Positions 24,060 to 54,478 of a stretch of DNA of 64,000 nt are shown here, piece after piece. Below the pieces are notes generated by a model. That model was not told the origin of the DNA. It saw only the letters and a list, made by a program, of their open reading frames with translations, and made no database searches. Location: contig CM000153.2 in assembly GCA_000004695.1 (NCBI GenBank), forward strand, positions 3,296,001 through 3,360,000, read 5' to 3'. The position numbers were made by a program, and so were the translations under genes. The stretch comes from Dictyostelium discoideum. Its lineage: Eukaryota. Position 1 is the stretch's first letter; each line of letters starts with the position of its first letter.

Positions 24060-24130
24060 TGCGTATGCTGGGAATCGAACCCAGTTCGCATCCGTGGCAG
24101 GGATGCATCATACCACTAGACCACATACGC
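24060..24130 (-). tRNA. tRNA-Gly(GCC), 71 nt
   Basis: Minus-strand sequence: GCGTATGTGGTCTAGTGGTATGATGCATCCCTGCCACGGATGCGAACTGGGTTCGATTCCCAGCATACGCA. Perfect 7-bp acceptor stem, anticodon loop CTGCCAC, T-arm CTGGG-TTCGATT-CCCAG. Followed by a TTTT terminator. Confidence 0.85.
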
Positions 24131-24205
24131 TTTTTTGATGAATTTTCAGTTCCAATAGAAAAATTTGGGGCATTTTAATTTAGTATGGTACTTTTTAAAA
24201 GGAAT

Positions 24206-24278
24206 CGCCTAGACATGGGATCGAACCATGGACCTAGCGGTTAACAGCCGCTCGCTCTGCCTACTGAGCCATCCAGGC
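24206..24278 (-). tRNA. tRNA-Asn(GTT), 73 nt
   Basis: Minus-strand sequence: GCCTGGATGGCTCAGTAGGCAGAGCGAGCGGCTGTTAACCGCTAGGTCCATGGTTCGATCCCATGTCTAGGCG. Anticodon loop CTGTTAA, T-arm CATGG-TTCGATC-CCATG. The acceptor stem pairs with one G-U. A TTTT terminator follows. Confidence 0.8.
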
Positions 24279-24508
24279 ACTTTGGATATTTTTGTTCGTA
24301 AAATATCCAGGTTTTTTTTTTAATATTTTGAAATTAAAAAAAGTTTTGTAAATTTTTGATTGTAATAAATTTTTAAAATTCAAAAATGAAACCAATAACA
24401 TTTTAAATTCAAAAAAAAATGTTTCAGTGATCCACACTGGACTGATTTCTAAACAAGAAGAGGTGATTAAATAAAAAAATTTATACATCCATTAAGTTTT
24501 ATTAATTT

Positions 24509-49268: not shown

Positions 49269-50553
49269 ATGTCAGAGAATGAAGGATGGTGTACAATTGA
49301 AAGTGACCCAGGTGTATTCACAGAATTAATTACAAAAATTGGTGTGAAAGATATTCAAGTTGAAGAATTATATACATTAGACTCATCAGAATATGATAGA
49401 TTAAAGTAATATTAATAAAATATTTATTTATTTTTTTTTTTTAAAAAATTTTATTTCTTTTTTTTTATCATTTTATTATATTTCTAACAAAATTTATAAT
49501 TTTTTTTTTTTATTTTGTTTTTTTATTTTATTTTTTTATATTTAATCAAATTAATTTATATATAGACCAGTATTAGGATTAATATTTTTATTTAAATGGG
49601 AAAAAGAAGAAGAGAATAGAACAATTTCTGATAATGAAAATATATTCTTTGCAAATCAAGTCATTCAAAATGCATGTGCAACTCAAGCTATCCTTTCAGT
49701 TTTATTAAATTCTGAAGGTATTGAATTGGGTGAAGAATTATCAAATTTTAAATCATTTGTTGGTGATTTTCCACCAATGGTATAGTATCAATTTAAATTA
49801 TTATTATTATTTTAAAATTATTATTTATTAATTCATTAATTTATTATTTTTTTTTATTTTTTTTTAAATTAGATGAAAGGTGAAGCAATTGGTAATAGTG
49901 AATTAATTAAAGAAACTCATAATAGTTTTACAGTTCAAGACCCATTTATATTTTCAAAGAAAAAGAATAGAAAACCATCAGATGCATTCCATTTTATAAG
50001 TTTTATACCATTCCAAGGTAAAGTTTATGAGTTGGATGGTTTAAAAAAAGGTCCATATTGTTTAGGTGATTGTACCCCTGATAATTGGTTAGAGATTGCC
50101 ACTCCATTCATTCAAAAAAGAATGGAAAAATATAGTCAAGGTGAAATTAGATTCAATTTAATGGCTGTAATTAAAAATAGACAAACTACATTACAAGAAA
50201 AGATTTTAACTTTAGAAAAGAAAAAAAATGATCTTGAAATTAAATTATCTGAACTTAATAGTGGTAGTGGTGGTGATAATAAAGAGGAATCTGGTGGTGC
50301 AACACCAACAACAAAAGAAGATTTAAATTTTATGATAAATGTTGTAAATAATGATATAGAAGAAGCAAATAATGAAATTTTAATGGAACAAGAGAAATTT
50401 AGAAATTGGAAAGATGAAAATATTAGAAGAAAACATAATTTCACTCCATTAATCTTAAATTTAATTAAAGGTTTAGCTGAAAAAGATAATCTCCAACCAT
50501 TAATTCAAAAAGCAAAAGATCAAATCTCTCAAAAACAACAACAACATAAATAA
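49269..50553 (+). CDS. Ubiquitin C-terminal hydrolase UCH37/UCHL5 (peptidase C12). Model join(49269..49405,49566..49779,49873..50553), about 343 aa.
   Basis: [38 protein letters not shown] (catalytic Cys), [48 protein letters not shown]. All are colinear with human UCHL5. Phases 2 and 0. Confidence 0.85.
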
Positions 50554-50711
50554 ATTAAATTAAATCATAAATTAAAATAAAAAAATCTTTTATTTATTAT
50601 TTTTATTTTTCTTTTTTTTTTCCAATTTTTTTTTTAAGTCTTAATATTTTTTTATTTTTTTATTTTTATTTTTAAATTCAGTTTTAAAAAAAAAAAAAAT
50701 AAAAAAAAAAA

Positions 50712-51860
50712 ATGGAATGTAAATACAAATTAACAGATTGTTTAATTGGGCATAGTAGTGAAGTAACATCATTATCAATAACACCAGATCCACAACTTAA
50801 TACTAGCTCAATAAATTATTTTGTTTCAGGATCAAAGGATGGTACAGTAATAATTTGGAAATCAACCATGTTAGAAAATAATATACCAAATACTACTCTT
50901 TATAGGGTATTAAAAGGTCATTCAGATGTTGTTCAAAAGGTTGCAATTACAAATGATCAAAAATTTGTCATATCTGGGTCATGGGATTGTAATGTTTGTA
51001 TTTGGGATATTCAAAGTGGTGAATGTATTAAAACCATTAAACATCAATCACAAGTAATCGATATATCATATCAACGGGCTGATGTTGATTATATTTCATC
51101 AATTCAAAGCAATGGTATGGTAATGATTTGGAAATTATTTTCAAAAATTGAAGAACCAACATTTCATAAATCATTTCATAATGATAATAATATTAATAAT
51201 AATAATAATGGTAATAGATTAAATTGTTGTTTATTAGGATATCATCCAACACTTTGTACAGCTGGGAGTGATAATAAAATTTTTAATTGTTTAAATGAAT
51301 TCAATGAAGAATTAAAATCAGTAAAATATAATAAACCAAAAAATTTAAAAAGAAAGATACCTCAATTTTTCAAACATAAAGGTGGGAAAATAAATTGTAT
51401 TACTTTTTCACCAGATTATTCAATATTAGCATCGGGTTGTAGTGATGGTGAATTATATTTATATAGTTTTAATGAACCCCATTTTGATCATTTAATGCAT
51501 TTCAAGACTGATAATCAAATAAATAATATAACTTTTAATCCATTAAAATATTGGTGTACAGCTGCAAATGATAATAATATAATAATATGGGATTTGGAAA
51601 GTAAAGATGTAATTGTAAATATTATTATCGATGATTTAGGCTATGATATCAATAATGAAAATAAAAATGAAATCATTTCAAAATATAAAGAGAATTGGAG
51701 AGATTTAGAATATCACAAAACTCAATTAAATTTAAAAAAAGATCAAGGAATTCTTGATAAACCTTTTATTCGTTCGCTTTCAATTTGTTGGTTAAATGGT
51801 GACATTTTTTATGTGGCTTGTGATGATGGTACAATAAGAGAGTATACTTTAAAACAATAA
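50712..51860 (+). CDS. WD40-repeat protein, divergent RACK1-like (paralog 1), 382 aa
   Basis: LKGHSDVVQKVAITNDQKFVISGSWDCNVCIWDIQSGECIKTIKHQSQVIDISY resembles RACK1 [37 protein letters not shown]. Confidence 0.6.
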   Translation: MECKYKLTDCLIGHSSEVTSLSITPDPQLNTSSINYFVSGSKDGTVIIWKSTMLENNIPNTTLYRVLKGHSDVVQKVAITNDQKFVISGSWDCNVCIWDIQSGECIKTIKHQSQVIDISYQRADVDYISSIQSNGMVMIWKLFSKIEEPTFHKSFHNDNNINNNNNGNRLNCCLLGYHPTLCTAGSDNKIFNCLNEFNEELKSVKYNKPKNLKRKIPQFFKHKGGKINCITFSPDYSILASGCSDGELYLYSFNEPHFDHLMHFKTDNQINNITFNPLKYWCTAANDNNIIIWDLESKDVIVNIIIDDLGYDINNENKNEIISKYKENWRDLEYHKTQLNLKKDQGILDKPFIRSLSICWLNGDIFYVACDDGTIREYTLKQ

Positions 51861-52009
51861 AAATAAAATAAAAAAATTAATTTTAAAAAAAGTTATTTTT
51901 AGATTTTGATTTGTTTTTTTTTTTTTTTTTTTTAATTTTTGATTTTTTTTTTTTTTTTTTCAAGAGTATGGAGACTCGTTTCGAAAATAATCAATATTGA
52001 TATAATTAA

Positions 52010-53209
52010 ATGATTATTTTATATTCATTAAATGACTGTTTATTTGAGCATAATTATGAAGTTACATCATTGGCAACAAATGGTATACGTTATTTAATAT
52101 CAGGATCAAAAGATTGTACAGTTAAAGTTTGGATTGTTGAAAGTGATAAACCAACGACTCTATATAGAACATTAATAGGTCACTCAAGTATTATTCAAGA
52201 TGTGGCAATAACTCAAGATGAAAAATATGTTATTTCAGGTTCATGGGATGGTAATGTTTGCATTTGGGATATTGAAAGTGGTCAATGTATTAAAACTATA
52301 AAACATCAATCACAAATTATGAAAGTTTCATATATACATCAACAAAATGGTGATTTTATATCATCCATTACAAATGATGGCACAGTAATGATTTGGAAAT
52401 TATTTTTTAAAAAAATAAAAGATGAAAATCAAAATGAAGAAAAACAAGAAAAAGAAAAAGAAGAAGAAGAACCAAAATTTTATAAATCATATCATGAAAA
52501 AGGAATTTTCAATACTAGTTGTGCATTTTCTACATCTGAGGATATTAATCCAATTTTATGTACATCTGGAAGTGATGGAAAAATATTCAGTTGTTTTGAT
52601 GAATTTAGAAATCAGTATAAATTATCAAAAAGTGATGAATTCGAAGAAACCATTAGAAACCATGTCAATGATGATGATGGTAATAATAATGATAAAAATG
52701 TAAAAATTTGGAAACATGATAGTGATGGTATTATAAATTATCTATTATTTTCACCTGCAAATCTTTTTATATCATCAGGTTGTAGCGAAGGAATTGTTTG
52801 TCTTTGGAGATACGATGATTGTAATGAATTTATAAAATTAAATTGTAATAGTCCAGTTAATAGTTTTAGTTATAATCCTGCTATGCTTTTATGTGCAACT
52901 GCGAGTGATGATAATATTTTAATATGGGATTTAGAAAAAAAAAAAATTTTAACAACAATTGTAATTGATGATTTCGACAGTCAACTTATCAATAATGATG
53001 AAAATAAAGATGAAATAATTTTAAAAGTTAAGAATCTTCAAAGATATAAAGAATCTTATAAAGCTCAATTAAAATATCATCAAAAAAATAGTGATAAACC
53101 ATTAATTCGTTCATTATCAATAGTTTGGTTTTCTTATGATATTATTTTTGTAGCATGTGATGATAACACTATTAGAAGATATAAAATAAATAATATTTAC
53201 GAAAATTAA
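52010..53209 (+). CDS. WD40-repeat protein, divergent RACK1-like (paralog 2), 399 aa, with a K/E-rich insert
   Basis: About 50% identical to paralog 1 over the propeller (ISGSWDGNVCIWDIESGQCIKTIKHQSQ...SLSIVWFSYDIIFVACDDNTIRRY). The 5' end may be incomplete. Confidence 0.55.
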   Translation: MIILYSLNDCLFEHNYEVTSLATNGIRYLISGSKDCTVKVWIVESDKPTTLYRTLIGHSSIIQDVAITQDEKYVISGSWDGNVCIWDIESGQCIKTIKHQSQIMKVSYIHQQNGDFISSITNDGTVMIWKLFFKKIKDENQNEEKQEKEKEEEEPKFYKSYHEKGIFNTSCAFSTSEDINPILCTSGSDGKIFSCFDEFRNQYKLSKSDEFEETIRNHVNDDDGNNNDKNVKIWKHDSDGIINYLLFSPANLFISSGCSEGIVCLWRYDDCNEFIKLNCNSPVNSFSYNPAMLLCATASDDNILIWDLEKKKILTTIVIDDFDSQLINNDENKDEIILKVKNLQRYKESYKAQLKYHQKNSDKPLIRSLSIVWFSYDIIFVACDDNTIRRYKINNIYEN

Positions 53210-53370: not shown

Positions 53371-54478
53371 TTAATTAATTTGATTATTGAGATAAGGGAT
53401 TACATTTTGATTAAACCATTGATCAGTGAATTGTAAATGATTACCAGGGCATGATATTTTAATTAATCTACCTTCATTATCTAATTGTTGAATACCAATC
53501 CAATCTTCAATGTATAAATCTGTTTTTTCCATTGGTAAGATAATATTATCTTGACCTGGTTGATAATAACCAAATAATTCAGATTCTCTTGGAACTACAA
53601 TTGTATCTGCTAAAAATTCACCCAATATAAAATTATTTACACTTAATAAATTATCCTTATATGTTTGATTCTTTTCAGAACGAACATTATTAATATCTGC
53701 TAAAAATACTGATTTTTCAACATATTCATCATAATTAAATGGATCTTGCCAATATTCTATAACAATTTATAATAAATATTTATTTATTAATTAAATTATT
53801 TCATTGAAAAAATAATGTAAAATAAAGATTTATTATTATAAAAACTTACCACCAGGTACTAAAGTATTCTGAACATATTTTTCATAAACACCTAATTCAA
53901 CCAAATCATCAGCTATTTTACATAATGTTGAATTTAATGCAGTACATCTTGGTAATGAACTAACACCTTGATGTTGACCACCTAATGAAATTAAATTATA
54001 AACTGGTGGATCATTACAACGTTCAACATATCCTCTAAGAAATTGACCACCTTGTGATAAACCTTTTTTTTTTTTTTTTTTTTTTTAATAAAATTAATAA
54101 ATTTTATCTTTTTATTTTTATTTTTATTTTTATTTTTTCATTTTATTTTTTTGAAAAATACATACCAACAGCATTAAATCCAGATGTCAAATTTGTATCT
54201 TCTTTTAACATTTTACAAACTATTTCAAGTTGTTCATTAACATTTTTAAAGAAAGAATTAAAAGAATCTTCTGCAATACTATCACCAATTGCAATATTTT
54301 TAACATAAACACCAGGTAATTGATTCTCTATCAATTCTTTTAATTTACCCATTGTAAGTGGATCTAAACCTGAATCACCAAGCCCATGCCATAATACAAC
54401 TGGTCTAATATTTTCACTATTTGAATTTTGAATTAAATAACAATTTATTATTAAAATAATAAAAAATAATATTTTCAT
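53371..54478 (-). CDS. ppt1: Palmitoyl-protein thioesterase 1. Model join(54478..54166,54062..53850,53756..53371), about 303 aa.
   Basis: Signal peptide. VLWHGLGDSGLDPLTMG and LSQGGQFLRGYVERC align to human PPT1 VIWHGMGDSCCNPLSMG and FSQGGQFLRAVAQRC. EYWQDPFNYDEYVEKSVFLADIN aligns to [24 protein letters not shown]. Both introns are phase 1 with GTATGT/GTAAGT donors. Confidence 0.85.

Follow-up and report, generated by a model that had tools for sequence, protein, structure and literature searches.

The analysed window is a stretch of 64,000 nucleotides from Dictyostelium discoideum (assembly GCA_000004695.1, contig CM000153.2, positions 3,296,001 to 3,360,000 of the forward strand) and is very A/T-rich, with 14–32% G+C. 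Two adjacent genes in this window, here referred to as T1 and T2, encode WD40 proteins related to RACK1, a seven-bladed WD40 scaffold bound to the 40S ribosomal subunit at its head. T1 (50712..51860, + strand; DDB_G0285529, Q54N37) is an intronless coding sequence (CDS) for 382 amino acids (aa). Its paralogue T2 (52010..53209, + strand; DDB_G0285531, Q54N36) is also an intronless CDS and encodes 399 aa. Both open reading frames (ORFs) are intact and lie on the same strand, 149 bp apart, exactly where a preliminary description of this DNA had placed two tandem genes. Their translations are identical to annotated proteins of D. discoideum AX4, both labelled 'hypothetical protein'. T1 and T2 share 43% amino acid identity in BLASTP (413 columns, E 1e-96) and 49% across the residues aligned by MAFFT, so that the earlier estimate of about 50% was roughly right. 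A literature search for papers naming DDB_G0285529, DDB_G0285531, Q54N37 or Q54N36 found none.

In Pfam, generic WD40 is the only family above threshold for T1 and T2, with no finer family assignment; many propeller families match below threshold. Structures of both proteins were predicted by AlphaFold2 from a family alignment of 12 sequences. The T1 model (mean predicted local distance difference test, pLDDT, 78.7; predicted template modelling score, pTM, 0.81) and the T2 model (pLDDT 73.8, pTM 0.77) each contain 28 strands that form seven four-stranded blades, and low confidence is limited to the inserts. Structure prediction therefore gives the same blade count, seven in both copies, as had been proposed from the letters of the sequence.

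RACK1 is the closest known natural family to T1 and T2. In single-sequence searches against the Protein Data Bank (PDB), RACK1 is the best natural colinear match to T1. With T2 alone, phmmer ranks repeat-rich WD40 proteins, FBXW7 and WDR5 above RACK1. Repeat-rich proteins such as 2ymu, Tako8 and WRAP-T score high because the scores of their near-identical WD40 repeats add up, and the T2 ranking was taken as a repeat artefact because the profile, blade and fold analyses agree on RACK1. When the family profile was compared with PDB sequences, RACK1 made up most of the matches listed after the designed or idealised repeat proteins (about 45 of 60), including RACK1 from animals, fungi, plants, kinetoplastids, apicomplexans and Euglena. 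These alignments are colinear, and some run in one stretch (profile 13–294 to 8tpu_S8 19–279). The single-propeller-sized database matches listed, with approximately 80% query cover, are all RACK1 proteins that share 47–74% identity with human RACK1. In a profile–profile comparison by hhalign, the family matches a set of 13 RACK1s with a probability of 100% (E 6.4e-41, 305 columns, 2–372/377 vs 1–315/318), and the match spans both families from Met1 to the C-terminus. Foldseek searches against PDB show the same relationship, with all top 50 matches of the T1 model and ranks 1–14 of the T2 model being RACK1.

To this were added blade-specific hidden Markov models (HMMs), in which each family blade was scored against every blade of the 13 RACK1s, human WDR5 and human G-beta-1 (GNB1). 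Four blades match their positional RACK1 counterparts best: blade 2 (48.1 bits; next best other blade 26.4), blade 5 (22.9 bits; next best 11.4), blade 6 (34.3 bits; next best 11.3) and blade 7 (6.6 bits; next best 3.6). Blade 1 is ambiguous, with 23.9 bits against RACK1 blade 1 and 28.3 bits against RACK1 blade 3. Family blades 3 and 4 gave no match in any of the three propeller families. RACK1-specific strings are common to the family in blade 2 (SGSWD...LWDL), blade 5 (SPD.S..ASG) and blade 6 (YW..AA....I.IWDLE.K), and the motif GHSxxVxxVxIxxDxxFxxSGSWDxxxxxWDxxxG, on which the preliminary description had based its RACK1 assignment, is found in T1 (aa 69–103) and in human RACK1. The N-termini of the two proteins, previously considered unusual, are not so: Met1 of both aligns with Met1 of RACK1, and T1 merely has a 9-residue insert in the blade-1 loop.

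Like RACK1, T1 and T2 are thus single-domain seven-bladed WD40 propellers, colinear with it from Met1 to the C-terminus, with positionally homologous blades 2, 5, 6 and 7, and RACK1 is their best structural match. WDR5, likewise a seven-bladed WD40 protein of similar size, is the second-best natural family in the sequence and fold searches. However, it ranks below RACK1 with lower profile scores, and it reaches at most 26 bits for any blade and is never the best match. Heterotrimeric G-beta is also a seven-bladed WD40 propeller, and RACK1 was originally named 'G-beta-like'. Unlike G-beta, the T1 and T2 models start with a beta-strand at residue 2 and are predicted to lack the N-terminal helix by which G-beta forms a coiled coil with G-gamma; against GNB1, the blade HMMs score no higher than 22.7 bits and never best. 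The preliminary description had named full-length colinear top matches to a different WD40 family as evidence that would speak against it. No such match was found in the profile, structure or blade searches, and the resemblance to RACK1 therefore stands.

A search was performed to retrieve relatives of T1 and T2 from databases and related genomes. The homologues detected are confined to strains of D. discoideum, 'D. cf. discoideum', D. citrinum, D. dimigraforme and D. firmibasis (11 clusters, one clade). Database scores fall abruptly from 481 to 252 bits and are then followed by unrelated multi-repeat proteins. An exhaustive scan of 1.84 billion representatives by an HMM of the family, which was swamped by long multi-repeat WD40 proteins with additive scores, yielded no further full-length relative above approximately 286 bits.

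In AX4, the two genes are flanked upstream by a UCH-L5-type ubiquitin hydrolase gene (last exon 49873..50553, + strand; 100% match to 'peptidase C12 family protein [D. discoideum AX4]') and downstream by the palmitoyl-protein thioesterase gene PPT1 (53371..54478, - strand; ORFs with Palm_thioest). Both lie outside the family and serve as synteny anchors. The order UCH-L5 (+), WD40 copies, PPT1 (-) is found in AX4 and in all five related genomes (loci L001–L005, of which L001 is D. dimigraforme, L003 the D. discoideum wild strain ACTFIW, GCA_054859355.1, and L004 the 'cf. discoideum' strain ACTFIZ). The number of WD40 copies between the anchors varies from one to three. D. firmibasis has a single T2-type copy; AX4, ACTFIW and D. 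citrinum have two copies each; D. dimigraforme (L001 6167–11273) and ACTFIZ (L004 3223–7712) have three. In ACTFIZ the order is T2(-), T1a(+), T1b(-), with T1a inverted relative to the others. Fragments of further copies were also detected, namely a 50-aa T2 C-terminal fragment in ACTFIZ (L004 6366–6509) and a 26-aa T1 C-terminal fragment in D. dimigraforme (L001 6167–6244). In D. purpureum and T. lacteum, no WD40 gene lies beside UCH-L5, and tblastn finds no family sequence in either locus. The D. purpureum locus (L006, GL870962.1, 10001–14933) keeps synteny upstream of UCH-L5 (Far-17a, Isy1, Pex2/12, CoaE), and directly downstream an aminotransferase and Clp1 stand in place of the WD40 genes and PPT1. 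Synteny with D. purpureum breaks right after UCH-L5, and the family therefore sits at a rearrangement breakpoint.

In a neighbour-joining tree rooted on RACK1, T1 and T2 form separate clades with 99% and 96% support, respectively, the latter including the single D. firmibasis gene, and a recent T1 duplication in ACTFIZ has 100% support. Taken at face value, this tree implies a loss of T1 in D. firmibasis, which is uncertain because the root branch is long. Repeated tandem duplication, inversion and partial loss of copies have shaped this family by birth and death, with one to three copies per genome. The known D. discoideum RACK1 (DdRACK1) is encoded by gpbB (DDB_G0275045), a gene with two exons on chromosome 2 that has been described as the only RACK1 gene of this organism (PMC4094278). 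With relatives in five Dictyostelium genomes or species of one clade, and gpbB on another chromosome, the suggestion that T1 and T2 are a lineage-specific, duplicated offshoot is borne out. It is very probable that the family descends from RACK1 and is restricted to one lineage.

Most residues that define canonical RACK1 have been replaced in this family, and T1 and T2 are not RACK1 orthologues. The residue comparison was based on an alignment of seven T1 and five T2 sequences to 13 diverse RACK1s. Only 39 (T1) and 42 (T2) of the 138 RACK1-invariant positions are kept, and identity to RACK1 is 18–29%, compared to 47–73% within the RACK1 set across kingdoms. The RDK motif of blade 1 (R36-D37-K38) mediates 40S binding, and its charge reversal abolishes binding (PMC9120242). 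Among the 13 RACK1s, this motif is RDK in 12 and RDH in one. The corresponding residues are K42-D43-G44 in T1 (50835..50843, + strand), with R36 changed to K and K38 to G in all seven T1 sequences, and K34-D35-C36 in T2 (52109..52117, + strand), with K38 changed to C in all five T2 sequences. D107, the residue changed in the designed ribosome-binding mutant D107Y of RACK1 (PMC6573788), is Q or K in every family member. In addition, W170 is replaced by S, Y228 is lost and Y302 is replaced by C, and Y246 and W247 survive in most T1 copies.

The basic character of RACK1 is reduced as well. An Arg/Lys patch of RACK1 contacts h39/h40, eS17 and uS9, and blades 4–5 contact the uS3 tail (PMC13542104). 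Two to four of the 15 RACK1-invariant Arg/Lys residues are kept in the family: K264 and R308 are retained, R36K is conservative and K139 is present in T2 only. Blade 4 is the most degenerate blade, with 1–4 of its 20 invariant residues kept and no blade-HMM match. The calculated isoelectric points (pI) are 6.1 (T1) and 5.0 (T2), acidic in contrast to the near-neutral or basic RACK1 (7.6 in human). Conserved surfaces have been described on RACK1, consisting of a top rim (R36, K38, S63, H64, W83, D107, R125 and W150) and a bottom surface (P202, D203, Y228, N244, Y246 and W247) (PMC4094278). Of the top rim, only S63 and W83, plus the conservative R36K, are kept in the family. On the bottom surface, most T1 proteins keep P202, D203, Y246 and W247, and T2 consistently keeps only P202.

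The family is also rich in cysteines. Seven of them are invariant in T1 and T2 alike (C10, C96, C105, C182, C243, C282 and C370, numbered as in T1), and the total is 13–19 per protein, compared to eight in human RACK1. Several cysteines occupy strand positions that hold other residues in RACK1, for example the L/R of ...LRLWD, which has become NVCIWD.

The lengths of 382 and 399 aa are due to four insertions relative to RACK1, which add 65–80 residues in total. The first is the short 9-residue loop insert of blade 1, found in T1 only. The second is an acidic insert between blades 3 and 4, specific to T2 (52406..52474, + strand; FKKIKDENQNEEKQEKEKEEEEP), with pLDDT below 50 for residues 134–149. 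It contains the unusual EKQEKEKEEEEP segment noted previously in this paralogue (aa 144–155). Compared to the ACTFIW and ACTFIZ loci, this segment (52439–52474) varies in length between D. discoideum strains through GAA repeats, that is, it behaves as an in-frame trinucleotide microsatellite. The third insertion separates blades 4 and 5. In T1 (51291..51353, + strand; aa 194–214) its identity is 0.25–0.45 and the ratio of nonsynonymous to synonymous substitution rates (dN/dS, omega) is 1.32, almost neutral. In T2 (52598..52699, + strand; aa 197–230) it is N/D-rich and of low complexity, with pLDDT below 50 for residues 197–229 and omega 0.69, and its length differs widely among species.

The fourth insertion, the blade 6–7 loop, is of a different nature. 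It is specific to the family and present in every member, comprises 40–46 residues of which 17–25 are charged, and is predicted to be partly helical. The T1 loop (51630..51767, + strand; aa 307–352; DDLGYDINNENKNEIISKYKENWRDLEYHKTQLNLKKDQGILDKPF) has 46 aa with 8 K+R and 10 D+E, and lies at the position of the RACK1 'knob' loop. Among T1 orthologues its identity is 0.79, as conserved as the blades, and its omega is 0.45; a helix is predicted at residues 332–344 with low pLDDT. The homologous T2 loop (52967..53104, + strand; aa 320–365) has predicted helices at 331–341 and 347–360. The preliminary description had reported long N/K/E-rich inserts; not every insert is of low complexity, and the blade 6–7 insert is conserved. 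In human RACK1, the charge of the knob loop (S278 loop) alters 40S head dynamics and the translation of mRNAs with A-rich leaders (PMC8451006). The knob loop of DdRACK1 is a polybasic insertion that binds phosphoinositides, and the T1 and T2 insert lies where DdRACK1 and plant RACK1 have their extended loop (PMC4094278).

The most RACK1-like and most constrained part of both proteins is the blade-2 repeat, located at 50916..51020 (+ strand) in T1 (GHSDVV...SGSWDCNVCIWDIQSG; omega 0.24) and at 52178..52282 (+ strand) in T2 (GHSSII...SGSWDGNVCIWDIESG; omega 0.19). Blade 2 identity is 0.82 within type and 0.72 between types. In total, approximately 90 alignment columns are invariant across the T1 and T2 subtypes. 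The RACK1A/B/C paralogues of Arabidopsis closely resemble one another as well as canonical RACK1 and still bind the ribosome. They likewise represent a lineage-internal RACK1 duplication with an extended blade 6–7 loop (PMC4094278); unlike these, the Dictyostelium pair has diverged beyond the defining features of RACK1.

All 13 CDSs of the family are intronless, and 12 of them are intact. The exception is T2 of ACTFIW (L003 5001–6149), in which a clean 30-bp deletion (CACAAATTATGAAAGTTTCATATATACATC, corresponding to 52311–52340 of the window) leads to a TAA at codon 101. The annotators bridged this deletion with an artificial intron (345-aa model P0011). The stop reflects either an error of the assembly or a null allele that occurs in nature. 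Nei-Gojobori dN/dS values are 0.31–0.58 between orthologues and 0.65–0.71 between recent within-genome duplicates. For the flanking UCH-L5 and PPT1 exons of the same genome pairs, dN/dS is mostly 0.0–0.14, with one exon pair at 0.24, and dN of these flanking genes is 4–8 times lower than that of the family at comparable dS. Both T1 and T2 are under weak-to-moderate purifying selection, 3–8 times weaker than that on the flanking genes, and the constraint is strongest in blade 2. RACK1 is a universally conserved housekeeping gene; unlike it, T1 and T2 are fast-evolving and copy-variable, with one apparent null allele and a narrow range.

These features are best explained, in our judgement with somewhat better than even confidence, by a young, lineage-restricted family that derives from RACK1. 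The founder may even have been a retrocopy of the RACK1 (gpbB) mRNA, which is possible since T1 and T2 are intronless and on another chromosome, unlike the two-exon gpbB. This idea is speculative because many Dictyostelium genes lack introns. The T1 and T2 proteins would have given up the canonical mode of ribosome docking and might act as free, non-essential protein-interaction scaffolds, with specificity presumably provided by the conserved blade 1–2 region and the novel blade 6–7 loop. Some partners of DdRACK1 may still be shared through the partly retained blade 5–6 surface of T1. The loss of docking determinants and basic character, the tolerance of copy-number change and of a null allele, and the gain of a conserved loop suggest that both proteins are dispensable off-ribosome scaffolds with a new binding module. 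We put forward this more specific function tentatively, as the most likely role but at somewhat below even odds.

Several points weigh against this explanation. The off-ribosome mechanism is read from sequence. A modified ribosome contact may exist for T1 and T2, because the R36K replacement is conservative and blades 1–2, which are key for 40S binding, are the best-conserved RACK1-like parts. The premature stop in ACTFIW and the high dN/dS would also fit genes that are on their way to being lost. For D. purpureum, the absence of the family is based on a word-indexed search and a single locus, and the searches behind its absence outside the clade could miss very divergent members. Finally, the tree was rooted with non-dictyostelid RACK1s and does not address the point at which the family branches within RACK1.

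The alternative that survives best, unlikely as it appears to us, is that T1 and T2 are ribosomal RACK1 isoforms that replace gpbB/RACK1 on a subset of 40S subunits, forming specialised ribosomes. The enlarged, charged blade 6–7 loop near the mRNA exit channel would then alter the choice of mRNAs for translation, for example of those with poly(A)-rich leaders. Dictyostelium leaders are A-rich, as illustrated by the run of A directly 5' of the T1 ATG, the propeller follows RACK1 colinearly, the change of R36 to K is conservative and D37 is retained. The N-terminal blades 1–2, on which 40S binding depends most (PMC9120242), show the greatest likeness to RACK1 and the strongest constraint, and the conserved loop was gained exactly where loop charge tunes A-rich-leader translation (PMC8451006). 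However, all members have G or C in place of K38 and Q or K in place of D107, only 2–4 of the 15 RACK1-invariant basic residues are left, and the proteins are acidic. Blade 4, which takes part in contacting the uS3 tail (PMC13542104), has degenerated most of all blades and has a long variable insert behind it. It is also atypical of ribosome components to evolve fast, to vary in copy number and to have a null allele.

We regard it as decidedly unlikely that T1 and T2 are functionless or nearly functionless duplicates drifting to pseudogenes, whose ORFs persist only because the duplications are recent. The dN/dS values of 0.31–0.71, several times those of the neighbours, would fit such decay, as would the variation from one to three copies with broken fragments of further copies, the TAA at codon 101 of ACTFIW T2, and the fact that literature and expression evidence for T1 and T2 was looked for and not found. 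However, 12 of the 13 copies are intact across dS 0.4–0.67, including the T1/T2 split. This counts against decay because neutral drift would bring stops and frameshifts, especially in A/T-rich, homopolymer-prone sequence. Moreover, omega is well below 1 except in the blade 4–5 insert and falls to 0.19–0.24 in blade 2, approximately 90 columns are invariant across subtypes, and the long blade 6–7 loop is conserved.

It seems more doubtful still that the pair are RACK1 mimics engaged in evolutionary conflict or specialisation, either as alternative head subunits of customised ribosomes, in which the giant charged loop would reprogramme translation, or as decoys that soak up RACK1-targeting factors of pathogens or social cheaters. 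Each scenario would account for the rapid sequence change, for tandem copies being born and lost, and for presence/absence differences between wild strains. The least probable reading, to which we give hardly any weight, is that the RACK1 likeness is a generic WD40 similarity and the family comes from another WD40 gene or an ancient paralogue unrelated to RACK1: the generic Pfam result, the phmmer ranking with T2 alone, the unmatched blades 3 and 4 and the slightly better match of blade 1 to RACK1 blade 3 would suit it, but the scores of repeat-rich proteins are additive artefacts, RACK1 comes first among single-propeller natural proteins in every test, the profile–profile alignment covers the whole of both families and their termini coincide, four blades score 2–3-fold better against their positional counterparts, and RACK1-specific strings are shared in blades 2, 5 and 6.

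T1 and T2 do not constitute a system of a new kind; they are a new and divergent form of a family already known. RACK1 usually exists as one gene under extreme conservation, and the locus shows that it can give rise to an offshoot that diverges rapidly and varies in copy number, here in a tractable model organism. The family offers a natural experiment for telling the RACK1 surfaces that are bound to the ribosome from those open to other uses, and it supplies candidate young, fast-evolving scaffold genes for the study of social amoeba adaptation. Both 'hypothetical proteins' can be annotated as RACK1-like (RACK1-derived) WD40 propellers. Antibody, knock-down and proteomic work on DdRACK1 should reckon with the T1 and T2 paralogues.

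The 149-bp spacer between T1 and T2 (51861..52009, + strand) is A/T-rich and accommodates the 3' region of T1 together with the presumed promoter and leader of T2. Only its last 30 bp or so can be aligned among D. discoideum and D. citrinum. The preliminary description had suggested that T2 may have an unannotated 5' exon, and this is not supported by the sequence at its start. An in-frame TAA lies immediately 5' of the T2 ATG (TAAATG junction), the ORF equals the annotated protein, and the N-terminus aligns residue for residue with T1, five orthologues and Met1 of RACK1. An extra 5' exon was therefore rejected; the upstream ATG at 51968 opens nothing more than a 10-codon upstream ORF (uORF) that is not conserved. 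This uORF, which ends with a TGA at 51998–52000, lies in a short island of the spacer that is not A/T-rich (51963–52000; AGAGTATGGAGACTCGTTTCG). The island is partly conserved in another D. discoideum strain and absent from other species, and the uORF itself is not conserved even within D. discoideum strains.

Directly upstream of the T1 start codon is a near-pure run of A (50674–50711; A14 T A12), a leader of the poly(A) type. A-rich leaders are common in Dictyostelium; that of T1 deserves mention because the RACK1 loop has been linked to the translation of such leaders. Logan contigs of approximately 1.23 kb that carry a T1 allele were considered as transcripts and rejected. They match the genomic sequence and their ends coincide with genomic poly-A and poly-T runs, and these ends are therefore probably assembly breakpoints. 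Elsewhere in the window, two adjoining tRNA genes were identified on the - strand at 24060–24279 by ARAGORN and Rfam, tRNA-Gly(GCC) at 24060–24130 and tRNA-Asn(GTT) at 24205–24279.

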